In this document: in pieces, positions 2,139 through 37,904 of the stretch
Layout of the letters: each line of letters starts with the position of its first letter
Numbering within the stretch: the stretch's first letter is position 1
Source: an uncultured Candidatus Berkelbacteria bacterium
Lineage (GTDB): Bacteria; Patescibacteriota; UBA1384; UBA12157
Direction: 5' to 3'
NCBI GenBank assembly: GCA_903877885.1
Contig: CAIRFN010000009.1
Coordinates: forward strand, 8,218-72,217
DNA: 64,000 nucleotides
The notes under the pieces: generated by a model
Told to the model about the DNA's origin: nothing
Databases searched by the model: none
What the model saw: the letters and a program-made list of their open reading frames with translations, nothing else
Program-made: the position numbers and the translations under genes

Positions 2139-3368
2139 TTATTTTAATTTTCTTCTAATAAAGGCTGGGACTTCCAATTCGTCGTCCATATTGTCATCAA
2201 CTTGCGGCATTTGTTCAGGCATACTTGGCATAGCAGTGGCTGGTCTTGATGGCGACATTGACGGTAGCCCACCAAAAGATGGTTTATTACCATATGATGG
2301 CATGCCGGTATATGATGGCGCAACGCCGTAACTGGAACGTTGGCTTGGCAAGCCGCCTAAACCAATGCCAGTCCCCATATTCATACCCAGACTTTTAGCT
2401 TTGCTTTCGCGAAAGCGATCCATTTCAAAACCAGTGGCAATCACAGTAATCTTGATTTCGCCAGACATGGCTTCGTCGATAATGGCACCAAAGATGATAT
2501 TAGCATCCGGATCAGCCGCTTCAGTAATAGCTTTAGCCGCTTCATCGATTTCGTACATACCCATATCTGGGCCACCAGTGATATTAAAAAGAATACCTTT
2601 GGCGCCGTCGATTGATAGTTCCAAAAGTGGTGAATCAATCGCTGCGCGCGCCGCTTCAATGGCTCGGTTGTCGCCTGAGGCGCGACCGATACCCATCAAA
2701 GCGGAACCAGCATCTTTCATGATGGTTCGAACATCGGCAAAGTCAACGTTAATAATTCCGTGCAAAGTAATCAAATCGGAAATACCTTGAACACCTTGAC
2801 GCAAAACATCATCAACAATACCAAAAGCATCGAATAATGAAGTTTTTTTATCAATGACTTGAAGTAAACGATCGTTTGGAATAGTGATCAAAGTATCAAC
2901 TTTATCACGAAGCTCTTCCACACCGATTTCTGCCATTTTCATCCGGCGATTACCTTCAAAAGAAAAAGGTTTGGTTACCACTGCCACAGTCAACGCACCA
3001 AGCTCTTTAGCAATCGAAGCTACCAACGGACCAGCACCAGTGCCAGTACCGCCGCCGGCGCCATAAGTCACAAAGACCATATCCGAACCTTTTAAGGCTT
3101 CGTAAATTTCATCTTTGTTTTCTTCGGCTGATTTGCGGCCTAACTCAATATCGCTCCCTGCGCCTAATCCACGAGTAGTTTCTTTGCCAATCTGAATTTT
3201 GATTGGTGCCTGGTTATGGACTAAGGCTTGGGCATCGGTGTTAATGGCAATAAATTCCACACCTTTTAATTTATAAGCAATCATACGATTGATCGCATTG
3301 CCGCCGGAACCACCACAGCCCACGACTCTAATTGTAGCAAATGTTTCGATTTCTGAACCTTTTTCCAT
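2139..3368 (-). CDS. ftsZ: Cell division GTPase FtsZ with a long low-complexity G/P/S/M-rich C-terminal tail.
   Basis: Tubulin signature [11 protein letters not shown]-terminal region [17 protein letters not shown]. Gene order ftsA-ftsZ. Confidence 0.95.
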
Positions 3369-3393: not shown

Positions 3394-4638
3394 TTACGGT
3401 AAAAACTGTTTAAAAAAGCCTTTGGCTTTATCCAAAATATTACCTGGATCCAAGCCTCGACTGGTTTGGGTATTTTGATTTTCCAAGCTATGTAGAATTA
3501 AACCCGTACTTGTAGAATAAATAGCTGGATCGATTTTGTCAACAAGACCGGCCATTTCAAAGAGTGGCATACCAATTTGTGCCGGAAGTCTTAATTCTTC
3601 TTTCGCTAGCGTGACTAAATCTTCAAGATTTGAACCGCCGCCAGTGAAAATGATTCCTGCTGGTAACATACCATCTTTACCAATCTTGCGCAACTCTTCT
3701 CTAATCATTGCAAAAATTTCCATCAGACGGGCATGAATAATTTCGGCGACATATTTTCGTTCAACTTTTTGCGTATCTTGTGGATCAAAATCAGCTAAAT
3801 CAATCGTTTCATTTTCTGCCACGTTTTCTGGAATAGCCGAACCATAATTAAGCTTAATTTTTTCTGCCACTTCTAAAGATGTTCTAAGGCCAATGGCTAA
3901 ATCGTTGGTAATATTTATAGATCCAACTGGTAAAACAGCGCAATGCAATAAGTCGCCATTTTCAAACACAGCCAGACTGGTTGTGCCGCCACCAATATCT
4001 ACCACAGCCAAACCCAAATCTTTTTGTTTTTTGTTAGTTAAAACATGAGCCGCCGCAATTGGAGCGAAAACCATACCTTCAATTGCAATATTAACTTGTT
4101 GTAGACTTTTAACCAAATTTTTGATCGCACTAGATGCGCCACTAACAACCACGGCCTCGACTTCCAGCCGAATACCGCTCATACCAATCGGATCAGAAAT
4201 TCCTTCTTGACCATCAATAATAAAATATTTTGGTACAACGTGAATAATTTCTCTGTTTGGCGGCAAGGCCACAGTTTGAGCCGCTTCCATGACACGATTA
4301 ACATCTGATGCGCTAATCTCACCATCAGCGCGACTAACAGCCACAACACCTTTGCTTAAGGTGGACATAATATGAGATCCGCCAATACTAATATTGGCGC
4401 TTTGAATTGGCATTCCAGAAATTCGCTCCGCTTCTTCTAAAGCCGAGGTAAGTGCAGAGATCGTATCTTCAGTATCTGTAATAATGCCTTTGCGCATACC
4501 AGCGTTTGGCACGCGACTAAAGCCGATAATATTAATTAAACCTTCATCAACACGACCAACAGTTACAGCCACTTTAGTCGTGCCAATATCAATCCCAACG
4601 AGCGTGTTGTCCTTTGACATATTAACTATTCCCTCCAC
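3394..4638 (-). CDS. ftsA: Cell division protein FtsA (actin-like ATPase).
   Basis: VGIDIGTTKVAVTVG actin-fold phosphate-1 motif. DIGGGTT motif. Immediately upstream of ftsZ. Confidence 0.9.
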   Translation of the reverse strand: MEGIVNMSKDNTLVGIDIGTTKVAVTVGRVDEGLINIIGFSRVPNAGMRKGIITDTEDTISALTSALEEAERISGMPIQSANISIGGSHIMSTLSKGVVAVSRADGEISASDVNRVMEAAQTVALPPNREIIHVVPKYFIIDGQEGISDPIGMSGIRLEVEAVVVSGASSAIKNLVKSLQQVNIAIEGMVFAPIAAAHVLTNKKQKDLGLAVVDIGGGTTSLAVFENGDLLHCAVLPVGSINITNDLAIGLRTSLEVAEKIKLNYGSAIPENVAENETIDLADFDPQDTQKVERKYVAEIIHARLMEIFAMIREELRKIGKDGMLPAGIIFTGGGSNLEDLVTLAKEELRLPAQIGMPLFEMAGLVDKIDPAIYSTSTGLILHSLENQNTQTSRGLDPGNILDKAKGFFKQFLP

Positions 4639-20129: not shown

Positions 20130-21353
20130 TTATAACATGATTCGCTTATTTCGACCATCGGGAATATTTTGAACCTTGTCTTTGATTTTAGTTAAGCTAG
20201 CTCGGAACAAAGTAAACTCGCCATAGCGGTCATTGATGGCGTCGCTAGCCTTAATAACCTCATTATTTTTAATATCTTCAGGTAAAAGTAAGGCTGGCGT
20301 ATCAACACTGTTTTTAAGATTAGTGATACTGATTCCAACCGCGCGGATTGGTTTGCTAAAATGATATTTAGTAATAATTTTAAGTCCAACTTGATAAATT
20401 TCTAGGCCGTCATTGGTGAAATGTGTCAAAGTGGTTTGCTCACCGTAACTTGTGAAATCGAAAAAACGAATATAAATATGAATTGTCCGACCTAAAACTT
20501 TGGCTTTGCGCAAACGTCTAGCCACTTTTTCCGCTAACTTTAATAGAACCTTGAAAGCTTCCTCTTTCTTGAAAACGTTTTTAGGTAAAGTGTAGGAATG
20601 ACCATATGATTTTTCTAAAGGAAATTGCCAGTAAGGCAAAACCGGTTCATAATCAATGCCTTGCCCCATCATTTTTAAAATCTTGGCTTGGCGGGGATTA
20701 AAAAAATGCGTTAACCGTTGAAGATTGGTTTGAGCTAAATCCTGCATTGATTTAATTCCGAGCGGATATAATCGTTTGGAAAGTCTTGGCCCAATGCCGC
20801 AAACATCTTCGATTGGAGTGGTAGCCAGAATATCATTCAAATTATTTTTGTCGATAATAGTTAGACCATCTGGTTTTTGTTTTTCACTAGCCAATTTTGC
20901 TAATAATTTATTATGGCTAATACCAATTGAACAGGTTAAATAATCGCCGACTTCAGACTTTAATCTGGCCTTAATATCCAAAGCAATATTTTGAGCTTCT
21001 TCGATATTTTTGCAAATTCTGGTCAAATCCACAAAAGCTTCATCAATCGAAAAAATTTCCACATTTGGGCTATAGCTTTCTAAAATAGAAAATAGCTGGC
21101 GACTAATAAATTGATATTTATTAAAATCAGCGGCAACCACAATAATATCAGGACACAGGTTTCGTGCTTCCCAAACCGACATAATACCTTTAACTCCCAT
21201 CTTTTTAGCTTCCACAGAAAGAGCGGCGCAAATAGTGCGTTCACCCGAACCTTTACCCGCAACACAAACAGGTTTGCCACGCAAAAATGGATTAGACTGT
21301 TGCTCGGCTGTGGCAAAATACGAATTCATATCAACATGTAAAATGATTTTCAA
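20130..21353 (-). CDS. dinB: DNA polymerase IV (Y-family, DinB).
   Basis: ILHVDMNSYFATAEQQSNPFLRGKPVCVAG and downstream Y-family blocks. Confidence 0.9.
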   Translation of the reverse strand: MKIILHVDMNSYFATAEQQSNPFLRGKPVCVAGKGSGERTICAALSVEAKKMGVKGIMSVWEARNLCPDIIVVAADFNKYQFISRQLFSILESYSPNVEIFSIDEAFVDLTRICKNIEEAQNIALDIKARLKSEVGDYLTCSIGISHNKLLAKLASEKQKPDGLTIIDKNNLNDILATTPIEDVCGIGPRLSKRLYPLGIKSMQDLAQTNLQRLTHFFNPRQAKILKMMGQGIDYEPVLPYWQFPLEKSYGHSYTLPKNVFKKEEAFKVLLKLAEKVARRLRKAKVLGRTIHIYIRFFDFTSYGEQTTLTHFTNDGLEIYQVGLKIITKYHFSKPIRAVGISITNLKNSVDTPALLLPEDIKNNEVIKASDAINDRYGEFTLFRASLTKIKDKVQNIPDGRNKRIML

Positions 21354-21574
21354 TTATTATCCTCCAAGAACCATTCTAGAGTTTCTGGTTCGAATCTTAA
21401 TTGGTATGAGTTAGCTTCGTCAGACATAAAAAAACGAAAAATGGTTTGGCCGCCCTCTTTAAAATGGTAAACAAGATTAAGTTTGAGGTTTTTATATAAA
21501 CGATCGTTTCGACGAAACGCCAGAGGTTTAATTTTTGGACCATCAAATTGAATTAGAACTTTAATTGGTTGCAT
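21350..21574 (-). CDS. Small hypothetical protein, first gene of the dinB operon (4-nt overlap with dinB).
   Basis: 74-aa ORF overlapping the dinB start. Preceded by the promoter carrying the candidate SOS box. Confidence 0.45.
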   Translation of the reverse strand: MQPIKVLIQFDGPKIKPLAFRRNDRLYKNLKLNLVYHFKEGGQTIFRFFMSDEANSYQLRFEPETLEWFLEDNN

Positions 21575-21580
21575 ATATCT

Positions 21581-21610
21581 ATTCTACACGAACAAAAAGC
21601 GAACGTCAAA
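21581..21610 (-). promoter_or_regulatory. Promoter of the dinB operon (TTTGAC-17-TAGAAT on the minus strand) carrying the direct repeat GTTCGC-N6-GTTCGT in its spacer; candidate LexA operator.
   Basis: Minus-strand read TTTGACGTTCGCTTTTTGTTCGTGTAGAAT. Same architecture as the lexA promoter at 25217..25246. Confidence 0.5.
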
Positions 21611-21664
21611 CTCAATAAAATTAACATCAAAAACCCCGGAAAAAATCCGGGGCGCGAGGGTTGG

Positions 21665-21871
21665 TTAGAATTGTTCGTCGCGCTTGGCGCAGGCGGCAAC
21701 GTTGATCTCATGGGCGATCCGCGGCCAGTCGGTTTCGCGATTGGAAGTAAAGTCTGCTAAGTGAGCCATGACACGGTTAAGTGAGAGAAAGATACCGCGA
21801 CCGGCGAGAATTTGCCGGATGTAAGAAACAGATGTTCGATCGGTTTGATCGAAAGTGATTTGGTTAAGCAT
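21665..21871 (-). CDS. Hypothetical small protein (68 aa) inside the high-GC island.
   Basis: Strong RBS AAGGAGG 8 nt upstream of the ATG at 21871. Followed by terminator hairpin ccccgg-aaaaaat-ccgggg plus U-run (21625-21655). GC-rich codons. Confidence 0.4.
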   Translation of the reverse strand: MLNQITFDQTDRTSVSYIRQILAGRGIFLSLNRVMAHLADFTSNRETDWPRIAHEINVAACAKRDEQF

Positions 21872-22038
21872 ATTCTTAACCTCCTTTGTAGTATTGGGCG
21901 CGATATGAACTAAAAAAGGCCTTTGCGCTGGAAGCGAAAGACCCAATTCTAGTTATTTGTGTGGCAATTAACTAAAACATAAGCCTTTCGCTTGCGCGAA
22001 GGTCTTTATCGTTTTTGCAAATTGACATAAAACAAATA

Positions 22039-22057
22039 GCCATAATCTAATTATGGC
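22039..22057. promoter_or_regulatory. Perfect 8-bp inverted repeat GCCATAATctaATTATGGC in the divergent intergenic region of the high-GC island; candidate operator.
   Basis: Read directly. Sits between the two divergent island genes, about 110 nt upstream of the consensus promoter. Confidence 0.35.
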
Positions 22058-22160
22058 GAGATTCTAAAACTTTGTCAACCCCACACAATTTCTTCCTGTA
22101 AAACGGCTTCCAGCCTGTTCTTACGGGAGCGAAATCTGCGGGGCAAGGTGCGGATGACTC

Positions 22161-22189
22161 TTGACTTTTGGGTGGTTTTGTGGTACAAT
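22161..22189 (+). promoter_or_regulatory. Consensus sigma70 promoter TTGACT-17-TACAAT driving the 22387 gene, with a roughly 190-nt structured leader.
   Basis: ttgacttttgggtggttttgtggtacaat. The leader contains a GCATGC...GCATGC stem and a ctctcaa-gga-ttgagag hairpin. Confidence 0.5.
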
Positions 22190-22386
22190 TTAGTAGTTTC
22201 GAAAATGAAATATGGTTTAAACCTGTTAAAAACTTTCCTTGTTGGAAATCTGGTTGCATGCTTTCCCCTCCTTGCATGCAGCCGGTTTTCTCTCAAGGAT
22301 TGAGAGTCCTTAAAAATCGAATAGCTAATACACGCGTCAAAGCCTCAAAGAGGTGGAGATGAACATTCTCAAAAAGGAGAAGAACG

Positions 22387-22863
22387 ATGAGAATGCATTT
22401 CACGCTGGTCAATGAGTTAAATCCGAATCTGCCTCAAGCAATTCGGGATGTCGTCAGTCAAATGACGGCGCGTCTTGCCCTTCAAGCTCCGGAAGCATTA
22501 GCAAACGGGGTCTACATTGCCAGGCCGATTTCTGATGGTCTAAGTGTCCATATTAAGTCGGACTCGAGTTTCGAATTCGACTATATGGGTCTTGGCGCCG
22601 ATTTCGGTAAGCTGCCTCTCGGGCTCAAAGATGCTGACGTCACAGGTATTTATATCTATGACGAAGGCGCGGAGTGTTGGCCGGTTCTCGGCCGATACAA
22701 AGGCCGTTCGGAAAATGGCGGTGAACTCTGGCGTGCAAGCGTCGGGCAATTCGCCAGCAACAGCCTGCCAATGTGGCGGCTGGAATTAACCGCCGACACA
22801 ATCGATTGGGCAGTCCGTGGCTGGGAGCAAATCCTTAGTCACGAAATCGACCCGATCGTCTAA
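22387..22863 (+). CDS. Hypothetical protein (158 aa) inside the high-GC island.
   Basis: RBS AAAGGAGAAG 5 nt upstream of ATG. GC-rich codon usage unlike neighbouring genes. No recognisable domain. Confidence 0.5.
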   Translation: MRMHFTLVNELNPNLPQAIRDVVSQMTARLALQAPEALANGVYIARPISDGLSVHIKSDSSFEFDYMGLGADFGKLPLGLKDADVTGIYIYDEGAECWPVLGRYKGRSENGGELWRASVGQFASNSLPMWRLELTADTIDWAVRGWEQILSHEIDPIV

Positions 22864-22871
22864 ATTAGGGA
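22852..22871. repeat. Left arm of a 20-bp inverted repeat pair (CCGATCGTCTAAATTAGGGA) flanking the PaaX-like gene; overlaps the stop codon of the 22387 gene.
   Basis: Reverse complement matches 23417..23436 at 19 of 20 positions. Confidence 0.6.
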
Positions 22872-22893
22872 TAGCTTTTAATCAAATAGAAAA

Positions 22894-35880: not shown

Positions 35881-35925
35881 TTCCTAACCGTTCCATACAC
35901 CTCGTAGGTGTATCAATTGGTTTGC
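35881..35925 (+). repeat. REP-like element copy a (TTCCATACACCT-cgt-AGGTGTATCAATTGG hairpin with conserved flanks).
   Basis: 8-bp stem ATACACCT/AGGTGTAT with loop CGT. Same element at 36811..36855 (same orientation) and 37532..37570 (inverted). Confidence 0.65.
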
Positions 35926-35965: not shown

Positions 35966-36727
35966 CTAATAATGATATAATTCTAGCGGGACTGGAAAAT
36001 TACCAGTCAAATATGCGACAACGGCTCGAGCATGGAGTTCAAATAATTCTGACTCAGTTACATCAATTTGCCAATACTTCGATTTGTCATTGATAACAAT
36101 ATTGTAAGTTGGGAATGAGTTATATCCGTTATACATTGAATCTAGCACTGAAAAGTTGCAAAGATTATTTGTACCCAGATAATAATATTTTGACTTTTGA
36201 TGAAAAAGTCTAAAGCCTAATGATGTATGTAGCCAGAAATTGTCAAAATATGTTTTTTGCAAACTTTCAATTGTTGAATCTTCGTAAATCGCAATTGATG
36301 TGCAAGCAGTAAGAAAAACAACAGCTAACTCGTGAATTTGACTTTCAATATTTATCAGCATTAGTTCTCTAATATTTACACTGAAAATATTATGAAAGTC
36401 ATTATCCGTTTCGGCGCATTCAAATTTAATTAAACTCGGTTGACTGAATTCATAGGGCTTTTGTTTTTTAACTAAACCGCCCAATAAATTGGAAATCATC
36501 TGTAAATTATTTTTTAAAGCCTGGTTTTTGTCATCAACATCAGCTAAATACAAAAAGTATTTTTTAACTTCATTAGGCGGCATTCGATTAAAATGCTTGT
36601 AGTCAGTCTTGGGTATCTCAATTGAAATACCAGGACAAATAATTAGATAAGAATTTTCCAATTCTAAAGTCAGACGATAATAATTGGCGTTTTTAACAAC
36701 GCATTTTGCATAATCACGCAAATCCAT
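35966..36727 (-). CDS. Hypothetical protein lying between two direct REP-like copies next to the RAYT.
   Basis: 253-aa ORF. Own terminator-like hairpin ccttcc-ttac-gggagg plus U6 on the minus strand (35936-35960). No recognisable domain. Confidence 0.5.
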   Translation of the reverse strand: MDLRDYAKCVVKNANYYRLTLELENSYLIICPGISIEIPKTDYKHFNRMPPNEVKKYFLYLADVDDKNQALKNNLQMISNLLGGLVKKQKPYEFSQPSLIKFECAETDNDFHNIFSVNIRELMLINIESQIHELAVVFLTACTSIAIYEDSTIESLQKTYFDNFWLHTSLGFRLFHQKSKYYYLGTNNLCNFSVLDSMYNGYNSFPTYNIVINDKSKYWQIDVTESELFELHARAVVAYLTGNFPVPLELYHY

Positions 36728-36810: not shown

Positions 36811-36855
36811 TTTCTAACCCTTCCATCCACCTCGTAGGTGTATCAATAGGTTAGA
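36811..36855 (+). repeat. REP-like element copy b; overlaps the RAYT stop codon.
   Basis: tttctaacccttccatccacctcgtaggtgtatcaatagg. Confidence 0.65.
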
Positions 36856-37514
36856 TAATCAAGTAAAATCTTTTTAATAATTTTTAGTTCACGTTGATAA
36901 GAAATTCGGTCATCAACAAAATCCTTATATTTTTCTGGTGCAAAATCCATTAAATTATCTAAATTACAAATTTTTCGAGTATATGGCATAATATATTCAT
37001 TATATGACGAGTATTCATAATCTTCTGGTTTATCGACCAAATTGGCCGTGACAGGGTTTAGATGGATATATCGCGTCGTGTGCAACAATTGTTCATCATC
37101 TTCGATATGCTTGTTTTTAAACCGACTTTCCCAAAGAGGACCAATTCTATCGTGTTTAATATTAAAATACCGGCTATAACTATTCAGAACCTTAGACATG
37201 AAATTGGAAATTCCGCCATCTTCAAGTTGCTGTAGTACTAAATGAATATGAGTGGGCATAATACAAAATGCAATGATATCAACCGATCGGTTGCCATTTC
37301 TATGTAATTCATTAATAATTCTTGTTTGAGTCGAAATTGCTAATCGCTTAAACATATGATATTTATAGCAAAAATCCTTGTATTGAAAAAGATTCAGCAT
37401 TTCAACCAATCTTAAATAGTCATAATCATTATTAAATATAATGTACTTAGCGATACTTCGAGTAAAAATATGGTAGCATTCATTAGTTCTTAATGGATCT
37501 GTTCTGTATTGCAT
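36843..37514 (-). CDS. REP-associated tyrosine transposase (RAYT / TnpA_REP, IS200-like Y1 HuH enzyme).
   Basis: Conserved CYHIFTRSI block. HuH motif IMPTHIHLVLQ. Catalytic-Tyr motif TRYIHLNPVTANLV. Flanked by inverted REP-like hairpins. RBS GGAGGGG. Confidence 0.7.
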   Translation of the reverse strand: MQYRTDPLRTNECYHIFTRSIAKYIIFNNDYDYLRLVEMLNLFQYKDFCYKYHMFKRLAISTQTRIINELHRNGNRSVDIIAFCIMPTHIHLVLQQLEDGGISNFMSKVLNSYSRYFNIKHDRIGPLWESRFKNKHIEDDEQLLHTTRYIHLNPVTANLVDKPEDYEYSSYNEYIMPYTRKICNLDNLMDFAPEKYKDFVDDRISYQRELKIIKKILLDYLTY

Positions 37515-37531
37515 TTCCCCTCCTTATCCAA

Positions 37532-37570
37532 CCAATTGATACACCTACGAGGTGTATGGAAAGGTTAAGA
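37532..37570 (-). repeat. REP-like element copy c, inverted relative to copies a and b and immediately upstream of the RAYT start.
   Basis: ccaattgatacacctacgaggtgtatggaaaggttaaga. Reverse complement matches copies a and b including flanks. Confidence 0.65.
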
Positions 37571-37591
37571 AAAAACCACCAATGATGGTGG
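37569..37591 (-). terminator. Rho-independent terminator (CCACCA-tcat-TGGTGG plus U6 on the minus strand) after the Cys-rich gene.
   Basis: Same hairpin family as the terminators at 10565 and 12155. Confidence 0.55.
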
Positions 37592-37608
37592 AGTTTTCTG
37601 TGGACGAA

Positions 37609-37848
37609 TTATTCTTTTTCGTCTTCTTTTTCGTCTTCGTCGTCGTGTTTGTGGCAGGAGGCGCAGCAGCCGGAACAGCCTTCGTCTTCGTTTTCATCGA
37701 GCTCGTTGTCGGCTTCGGCTTTAGCAGTGCAACCGCATTCGCAATCATCATCGCAGTTGCAGCAGTGAATACAAACACCTTTTTCGCACTTGCATTCGGT
37801 TTTTTCATCGAGCGGCATTCCGCACGCACATTTGGTATCGTCAGACAT
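37609..37848 (-). CDS. Cysteine-rich small protein, metallothionein-like (79 aa, about 18 Cys, acidic C-terminal tail).
   Basis: MSDDTKCACGMPLDEKTECKCEKGVCIHCCNCDDDCECGC...GCSGCCASCHKHDDEDEKEDEKE. RBS AAGAAAGGA 5 nt upstream of ATG. Terminator follows. Competing overlapping frames are low-complexity artefacts. Confidence 0.55.
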   Translation of the reverse strand: MSDDTKCACGMPLDEKTECKCEKGVCIHCCNCDDDCECGCTAKAEADNELDENEDEGCSGCCASCHKHDDEDEKEDEKE

Positions 37849-37904
37849 AGTGTCCTTTCTTGTTAATTTTTCGGAATATATAATTCCGTTTATTTTATAT
37901 TAGC

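Follow-up and report, generated by a model that had tools for sequence, protein, structure and literature searches.

A conserved 11-cysteine small protein of Patescibacteria that likely binds metal and lies outside the described metallothionein families

Eleven ligands (Cys9His2) hold the four zinc ions of the bacterial metallothionein SmtA, and the alpha-domain of mammalian metallothionein is an M4Cys11 cluster. The bacterial metallothioneins with an investigated biological function are two, SmtA of the SmtA/BmtA family and MymT, a mycobacterial Cu(I) metallothionein that sets a precedent for the independent invention of metallothioneins in bacteria (PMC7387436). SmtA binds four Zn per protein and PflQ2MT three, and SmtA and similar bacterial metallothioneins are rigid and well folded around a zinc-finger-like nucleus (PMC10612145). 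Here we analyse a small Cys-rich gene at 37609..37848 on the minus strand of a 64,000-nucleotide stretch of DNA (the window, meaning the whole stretch analysed). The window is Berkelbacteria-like by sequence comparison, its MreB being 94% identical to the MreB of the metagenome-assembled genome (MAG) ELA735 (L011). The gene belongs to a conserved family of Patescibacteria, and our best reading is that it encodes a cytosolic metal-thiolate cluster protein, metallothionein-like in function, from a new family unrelated to the known metallothioneins.

The gene is a complete coding sequence of 79 amino acids plus stop (37609..37848 (-), taken from the open reading frame (ORF) list and its translation), and the product is identical to the protein quoted in an initial annotation of this DNA. 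That annotation put the Cys content at about 23%; counting gave 15 Cys in 79 residues (19.0%), at positions 7, 9, 19, 21, 26, 29, 30, 32, 36, 38, 40, 58, 61, 62 and 65. The protein also has 3 His, 27 Asp plus Glu, 8 Lys plus Arg and 0 aromatic residues. The rest of the window's genes hold 174 Cys codons in roughly 18,000 codons (~1%), an enrichment of ~19-fold for this ORF, which is the sole strongly Cys-rich one in the 64 kb; two further ORFs reach at least 10% Cys, both of them short and with 4 and 6 Cys. As read from the sequence, the N-terminus is acidic and has no signal peptide. It leads into a conserved 11-Cys core domain (residues 7-40; 37729..37830 (-)) with the pattern CxCGMPL-x5-CxC-x4-CxxCCxC-x3-CxCxC, delimited by family alignments, AlphaFold and codon exchange. 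The core is acidic (8 D/E vs 3 K/R) and has the CxC/CC clusters described earlier, with four CxC and one CC in addition to CxxC spacings. Behind it lie an acidic linker (residues 41-57; 37678..37728 (-)) that differs in length and sequence among homologues, a second, lineage-specific Cys/His cluster recognised by homologue comparison (residues 58-68, CSGCCASCHKH; 37645..37677 (-)), and the poly-acidic C-terminal tail already noted in the initial annotation and readily read from the sequence (residues 69-79, DDEDEKEDEKE; 37612..37644 (-)).

We compared reading frames in the window and 13 homologous loci (n = 14). The Cys frame was uninterrupted in 14 of 14, and the alternative ORFs 37545..37829 (-) and 37552..37866 (+), both open in the window, had stops in most homologues. 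The conserved frame is thus the Cys frame and not 37545..37829, whose conservation the initial annotation had named as evidence that would count against its own proposal. Over the 34-codon core, the window and the relative L001 differ at a proportion of 0.82 of synonymous sites (pS) and 0.04 of nonsynonymous sites (pN); the mean over 78 pairs was pS 0.86, with synonymous sites saturated, and pN 0.24. In each of the 11 Cys columns TGT and TGC interchange while the amino acid is kept. The ORF is a genuine, conserved protein-coding gene, and all 11 core Cys are under strict purifying selection; a spurious ORF or a wrong frame was rejected on the open frame and on the excess of pS over pN.

The constraint extends across the family, which we aligned in sets of 77 and 112 members. 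In both alignments each of the 11 Cys columns is either invariant or kept in 90% or more of the sequences, so the Cys pattern does recur in related genomes. M11 and P12 likewise reach 90% or more in the two sets, and G10 and L13 81-82% in the 112-member alignment; the remaining core positions are variable and mostly polar or charged. Exactly 11 Cys are present in 74 of the 112 members, whose median net charge is -4. Their median composition (51 amino acids, 22% Cys, 0 aromatics) and that of the window protein (79 amino acids, 19% Cys, 0 aromatics) both fall within the operational definition of a metallothionein. Position 28 is His in 64 members, Tyr in 29 and another residue in 19, and neither a conserved His nor a conserved His pair was found in the 112. 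One member, P0101, has CAQHCTC in place of CxxCCxC and so carries a His at a Cys kept in 111 of 112 aligned members. Outside the core, charged E/D/K-rich tails recur, and many members end in long ones. Some lineages have added low-complexity CxC-rich modules, either N-terminal (P0010, P0040, L050) or C-terminal (P0124, L047). The cluster that follows the acidic helix in the window protein, G-C-x2-3-C-x2-[C/H]-x2-4-[C/H], is confined to the window's Berkelbacteria-like clade, and Cys and His interchange in it between relatives.

AlphaFold, run with the family alignments on the window protein and on a 49-residue member, predicts that the core adopts a single defined, compact fold without a hydrophobic core. 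The predicted local distance difference test score (pLDDT) was ~90 for residues 1-45 of the window protein and averaged 88.8 for the 49-residue member, and the predicted core has two short beta-bridges and no helix. DSSP on the model placed a helix at about residues 40-54, most of the acidic linker, along which confidence drops from 85 to ~56; pLDDT was ~55-59 in the second Cys/His cluster, and confidence was low in the tail. Foldseek with the two models gave no significant match among solved structures and did not retrieve the SmtA structure 1JJD; the best matches, at a non-significant E of about 4-7, were RING/PHD-type cross-brace zinc domains.

We then compared the family with the described metallothioneins. 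The window protein had 0 matches in Pfam and NCBIfam at E<=10, and PF02069 matched none of the 112 members at E<=1. With the SmtA query sequence confirmed as PDB 1JJD (E 3e-35), hhalign of the family profile against SmtA gave a probability of 1.7% over 9 columns, and the family profiles searched against the PDB at E<=10 matched neither 1JJD nor 6GV7/6GRV nor any other solved metallothionein. The initial annotation had called the protein SmtA/BmtA-type, a label that its own suggested check, a profile search of bacterial metallothionein families, did not bear out: neither PF02069 nor an NCBIfam model matched at E<=10. We rejected SmtA/BmtA membership on the missing PF02069 match, the hhalign result and the lack of the conserved His. 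What stands of the label is its broader half, since the composition and the CxC/CC motifs are metallothionein-like; the family assignment falls. Both proteins are small, bacterial, cytosolic and Cys-rich and start K-C-x-C, and the rigidity of SmtA, with its small zinc-finger-like element, has a counterpart in the confidently predicted rigid core described here. They differ in that our family has no conserved His, no aromatic residues, a wholly different Cys spacing and no detectable homology to SmtA, and is found in Patescibacteria rather than in cyanobacteria and proteobacteria.

The only recurring Pfam signal was to PF02067 (insect metallothionein family 5), a weak match in 21 of 112 members with a best E of 0.0064. 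When ten members were scanned individually, the better of two matches scored 16.1 bits against a Pfam cut-off of 25, and the window protein did not match PF02067. The family shares with eukaryotic metallothioneins (the mammalian alpha-domain and insect family 5, Drosophila Mtn) the 11 Cys in ~30-35 residues, the CxC/CC motifs, the absence of aromatics and the variable non-Cys positions, and is set apart from them by the well-conserved GMPL, the fixed single architecture and the long charged tails; any likeness would be convergent. MymT, which is copper-induced, resembles the family as a small, lineage-restricted Cys-rich bacterial protein unrelated to SmtA.

A sequence search returned 13 homologues, and a profile search returned at least 86 clusters at 90% identity, all unnamed or 'hypothetical'. 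An exhaustive HMMER scan of 1.84 billion representative proteins (50% identity) gave 58 matches, all stand-alone and 38-127 amino acids long. On metagenome contigs a degenerate DNA pattern gave 0 matches and profile-derived peptide patterns gave 43 loci. No family member carries a Pfam domain save P0082 (127 amino acids, on a 618-bp contig), in which the family's first 32 residues run in frame into a NinG-like domain (PF05766); it is probably an assembly or recombination chimera at the common CxCG motif. The genome matches are MAGs of Berkelbacteria, Paceibacterota, Portnoybacteria, Saccharibacteria and Parcubacteria, the exception among named sources being one MAG labelled Gammaproteobacteria. 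The homologues come from groundwater and from the hypolimnia of anoxic lakes. Literature searches on the motif, on metallothioneins of Patescibacteria and on small Cys-rich proteins of the candidate phyla radiation (CPR) found nothing relevant. The family is therefore undescribed, with no annotation, Pfam model, NCBIfam model or literature found, and the protein lies outside SmtA/BmtA and every described family.

Several features bear on what the protein does. The acidic N-terminus without a signal peptide indicates a cytoplasmic protein, and in the reducing cytoplasm its Cys would serve as metal ligands and not form disulfides. The abundance of CxC and CC motifs and the 11 ligands argue for ligands gathered in one cluster, like those of the M4Cys11 alpha-domain or those around the four zinc ions of SmtA, rather than for isolated Cys4 zinc fingers, and the polar residues between the Cys and the absent hydrophobic core point the same way. 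The replacement of Cys by His in the P0101 core and in the C-terminal cluster fits a ligand role, and the modules added in some lineages are the kind of growth seen in metallothioneins, unlike zinc fingers or ferredoxins. A core of high pLDDT with almost no regular secondary structure is what is expected of a metal-organised knot, and its predicted rigidity is no objection, because SmtA-type metallothioneins are well folded (PMC10612145). We therefore consider it likely that the core binds metal through its Cys.

In the mechanism that we propose, the product would be a small acidic cytoplasmic protein in which the 11 thiolates of the 34-residue core hold a compact polynuclear metal-thiolate cluster. 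The CxCG...CxC hairpin at the N-terminus, with its Gly-Met-Pro-Leu, would form a small zinc-knuckle-like nucleus on which the remainder of the cluster assembles, comparable to the rigid zinc-finger element of SmtA. In the window's clade, the acidic helix would join the core to a second Cys/His site with 4-5 ligands, adding one more metal ion. The protein would buffer, store or detoxify soft or borderline metals, with Zn(II), Cu(I) and Cd(II) as examples, and possibly have some thiol-based antioxidant capacity. We see the case for such a metallothionein-like role as evenly balanced. As to the metal, we lean on the ZIP transporter gene found beside one lineage of the family (see below) and on the frequent His28, which point to Zn; CxC richness is also typical of Cu(I)-thioneins. 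A wider proposal, which we put forward tentatively and with less conviction than the role itself, is that the family represents a third, independently evolved lineage of bacterial metallothioneins, confined to Patescibacteria (CPR) and with a fold of its own. It would consist of a 34-residue, 11-Cys single-cluster domain nucleated by the CxCGMPL zinc knuckle, to which some lineages have added Cys/His modules, and would act as a cytosolic Zn/Cu buffer or thiol reservoir in ultra-small cells.

A number of observations weigh against the metallothionein-like reading. A well-conserved GMPL and an unvarying Cys spacing would be expected in a structural or recognition domain sooner than in a classical metallothionein, and the PF02067 similarity is probably compositional. 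The family is sporadic, not universal, within Patescibacteria and is thus not a component of core homeostasis. Neither a metalloregulator nor an efflux pump nor any other metal gene is a constant neighbour, the 127 neighbouring proteins matching 110 different Pfam families. In the two loci where an ArsR-family gene follows the Cys-rich gene (L036/L046), the operator-like palindrome is not upstream of the Cys-rich gene and the ArsR protein has no obvious metal-site residues. The bias towards C-ending codons that might mark a well-translated gene is present in some homologues only.

The conserved GMPL and the fixed Cys spacing favour a rival that we judge rather unlikely, namely that the protein is a structural zinc micro-protein. 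A rigid mini-domain holding one to three structural Zn (a zinc knuckle together with a Zn2/Zn3 cluster, for instance) would let it bind and regulate a partner protein, like the C(P)XCG micro-proteins of Haloferax, with the acidic tail modulating binding or mimicking nucleic acid. That spacing, the well-conserved non-ligand GMPL and the single confident AlphaFold fold suit such a protein, as do the RING/PHD cross-brace zinc domains at the top of the Foldseek matches, non-significant as these are. The CxCG knuckle does resemble C(P)XCG, and in two Haloferax volcanii reports such proteins are regulatory, stand-alone and 40-70 amino acids long, have CxxCG/CxCG knuckles and are often acidic (PMC11241148, PMC10716476). 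By their motif definition there (two or more C(P)XCG), however, they have about four Cys per predicted zinc site, and 11 Cys in 34 residues are far beyond what a scaffold needs. CxC and CC also outnumber the CxxC knuckles typical of zinc fingers here, and extra CxC-rich modules in particular lineages make no sense for a recognition domain. The strongly acidic core excludes direct nucleic-acid binding, and no partner gene co-occurs in the 43 contexts.

The second half of the core invites a different, and in our estimate improbable, explanation. C26-x2-C29-x2-C32-x3-C36 has the spacing of the classical ferredoxin [4Fe-4S] motif, so that the protein might be a miniature iron-sulfur protein with one cubane and possibly a second metal site at C7/C9/C19/C21, carrying electrons at low potential in these anaerobic cells. 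In favour are the CxxCxxCxxxC spacing, which is kept without exception, a frequent Ile or Val after the first Cys, as ferredoxins have, and a small size and acidity that recall clostridial-type [4Fe-4S] ferredoxins. The sole PDB sequence matches of the family profile were of ferredoxin type (NdhI/NuoI, E 0.46-5.5; 1CLF, E 1.4; 1DUR, E 4.1), and one member weakly matched the ndhI model (E 0.65); all of these are statistically insignificant, and no Pfam Fer4 match occurs in the 112 members at E<=1. The Pro of the ferredoxin CP motif, after the fourth Cys, is missing, and between the Cys stand polar or charged side chains (D, E, N, S, K) instead of the small hydrophobics that shield a cubane. The protein has no aromatics and almost no hydrophobic core, its predicted structure lacks the beta-alpha-beta ferredoxin fold, and its family's extra CxC modules are not ferredoxin-like. 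The initial annotation had also kept in play a precursor of a ribosomally synthesised and post-translationally modified peptide (RiPP). Such a precursor might, for instance, carry thioether crosslinks of the ranthipeptide or sactipeptide type, with a maturase from another part of the genome acting on its Cys. A small, Cys-rich protein fits this, and in L019 a gene with a faint SPASM match lies 1.3 kb downstream, yet we regard this as highly improbable. We screened neighbour clusters present in at least 3 of the 43 contexts, the 25 most frequent of the 110 Pfam families and six further annotated contexts; apart from the L019 gene, no radical-SAM, YcaO, Lan-type, peptidase or exporter gene recurs among them. 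No NCBIfam precursor model matches the 112 members at E<=1, and the Cys-rich region is the conserved, confidently folded part of the protein and not a variable core behind a conserved leader. Long charged tails at the protein end and a monocistronic gene with its own terminator also speak against a precursor, and that caveat found no support.

The locus itself is informative about inheritance. In the window's clade the gene order is MreB - GT4 - WecG - [variable] - Cys-rich gene - [variable] - Dus. The upstream variable slot holds a HIT gene (the window, L043, L049), an ankyrin-repeat gene (L011, L014) or nothing (L001, L003), and the downstream slot either holds a RAYT gene with repetitive extragenic palindromic (REP)-like palindromes or is empty. 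From this fixed position we infer that the Cys-rich gene is vertically inherited and that HIT and RAYT are later insertions. In the window the two flank the gene as first described, with HIT upstream (PF01230, E 1.5e-12), a Y1/IS200-like RAYT gene downstream (PF01797, E 1.9e-8) and REP-like palindromes nearby. The suggestion that homologues might be conserved next to HIT genes did not hold up: HIT is adjacent in 3 of 43 contexts, and close relatives carry the ankyrin-repeat gene or nothing there; a functional link to HIT was rejected on this count. On one metagenome contig (L020) two paralogous Cys-rich genes lie 2.3 kb apart (572-715 and 2871-3014), so the family is able to duplicate locally.

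Across the 43 distinct contexts no neighbour is conserved beyond clade-level synteny, and the further annotated contexts are unrelated to each other. A few neighbours are hints to function. In the L053/L055 lineage the next gene downstream, read from the same strand, encodes a ZIP zinc transporter (PF02535, E about 1e-21). An Fe/Mn superoxide dismutase gene lies two genes downstream in L005/L009, and a desulfoferrodoxin gene two genes away in L016-L018. The Paceibacterota loci L005 and L009 also encode, directly upstream of the Cys-rich gene, a LiaI/LiaF-like membrane protein of 58-59 amino acids (PF18917; L005 5823-5999, L009 5808-5987) with a Cys/His-rich C-terminal tail, CKKHGHCECGCEEKK and CHCGHEHKEK, respectively. 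In L036/L046 the ArsR-family gene directly follows the Cys-rich gene and has a palindrome, TTGAACAATTC-N4-GAATTGTCC, in its own TTGAAC/TATAAT promoter and again after its stop codon (L036 4152-4181 and ~4507-4535; also in L046). By its placement this looks like an autoregulatory operator, with a second target gene not evident. Regulation of the Cys-rich gene by ArsR in these loci was not supported, given that placement and the lack of a clear downstream target gene.

The expression signals proposed in the initial annotation, a ribosome-binding site and a downstream hairpin with a U-run, were recovered. A Shine-Dalgarno-like GAAAGGA lies 4 nt 5' of the ATG (37853..37859 (-)), and homologues have AGGAGG or AAGGAG at equal spacing before the start. 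A terminator scan identified an intrinsic terminator at 37570..37591 (-), consisting of a hairpin, CCACCA-UCAU-UGGUGG, with a 6-bp GC-rich stem and a 4-nt loop (37576..37591), followed by U6 (37570..37575). The 106-nt stretch 37520..37625, which covers this hairpin and an adjoining REP-like one, has an RNA fold z-score of -4.8. Many homologues combine a Shine-Dalgarno-like site and, in a good number of cases, a TATAAT-like box with a hairpin and T-run right behind the stop codon, an arrangement that suggests a monocistronic unit. In the window, the HIT stop and the ATG are separated by a 56-nt spacer that contains a perfect palindrome, CGGAAT-ATATA-ATTCCG (37872..37888; no strand assigned). 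It could be a candidate operator, a hairpin in the 5' untranslated region or a remnant of the HIT insertion; its link to the Cys-rich gene is uncertain because it is not conserved upstream of homologues.

The GC content of the gene is far above that of its neighbours, as had been pointed out: the ORF stands at 0.50, the HIT and RAYT genes on either side of it at 0.28-0.31. C-ending (NNC) codons make up 25 of its 34 two-fold pyrimidine-ending codons; in the window's remaining genes NNC accounts for 0.19-0.28 of the codons for Asp, Asn, His, Tyr and Phe and for 0.47 of those for Cys. The gene keeps the Glu and Lys preference of its genome (GAA 13 vs GAG 1; AAA 7 vs AAG 1). The excess GC is a matter of amino-acid composition plus a preference for C-ending pyrimidine codons. 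Such a bias is easier to reconcile with selection on a well-translated gene than with import from a donor of high GC; it was significant (binomial p < 0.02) in 4 of 13 homologous loci only, and the codon signal is therefore no more than suggestive. Horizontal transfer as the source of the high GC was rejected on the conserved synteny, the retained GAA and AAA, and the absence of homologues on viral contigs and in phage and plasmid records.

The DNA downstream of the gene carries three copies of a REP-like palindrome, ACACCTCGTAGGTGT (35897-35911, 36827-36841 and 37541-37555), one copy with 1 mismatch, where 0 are expected by chance. Between the copies lie the RAYT-like Y1 transposase gene (36843-37514) and, next to it, an unannotated 253-residue ORF on the minus strand (35966-36727). 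Pfam gave no match for this ORF at E<=1, and tblastn did not recover it in the relatives' loci; it may be cargo of the REP/RAYT insertion. The whole insert is missing in L001, and L003 has a REP-like palindrome of the same sequence directly after its Cys-rich gene. Elsewhere in the window, a ~1.5-kb stretch (21350-22890) contains a 158-residue ORF (22387-22863 (+)) of 52% GC, far above the window norm. It lies downstream of a 407-residue ORF (20130-21353) that reads like a Y-family DNA polymerase. The stretch has no Rfam match at E<=0.1 and may be foreign DNA.

The CPR/Patescibacteria are episymbiotic cells with genomes of roughly 1 Mb, and we know of no account of metal or thiol buffering in them. 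If the family is indeed a metallothionein lineage of the CPR, it would stand in reduced genomes that would leave little room for other metal-handling systems. It would be a new Pfam-level family, and a possible marker of metal or redox stress in CPR populations of groundwater and anoxic lakes. The 11-Cys domain is conserved and probably well expressed, and its fold, predicted with confidence, has no structural relative; it would be a tractable target of 40-50 residues for metallobiochemistry and structure determination. Should it prove instead to be a zinc micro-protein regulator or a minimal iron-sulfur protein, it would still be a new small-protein family in a lineage whose small proteins are mostly uncharacterised.

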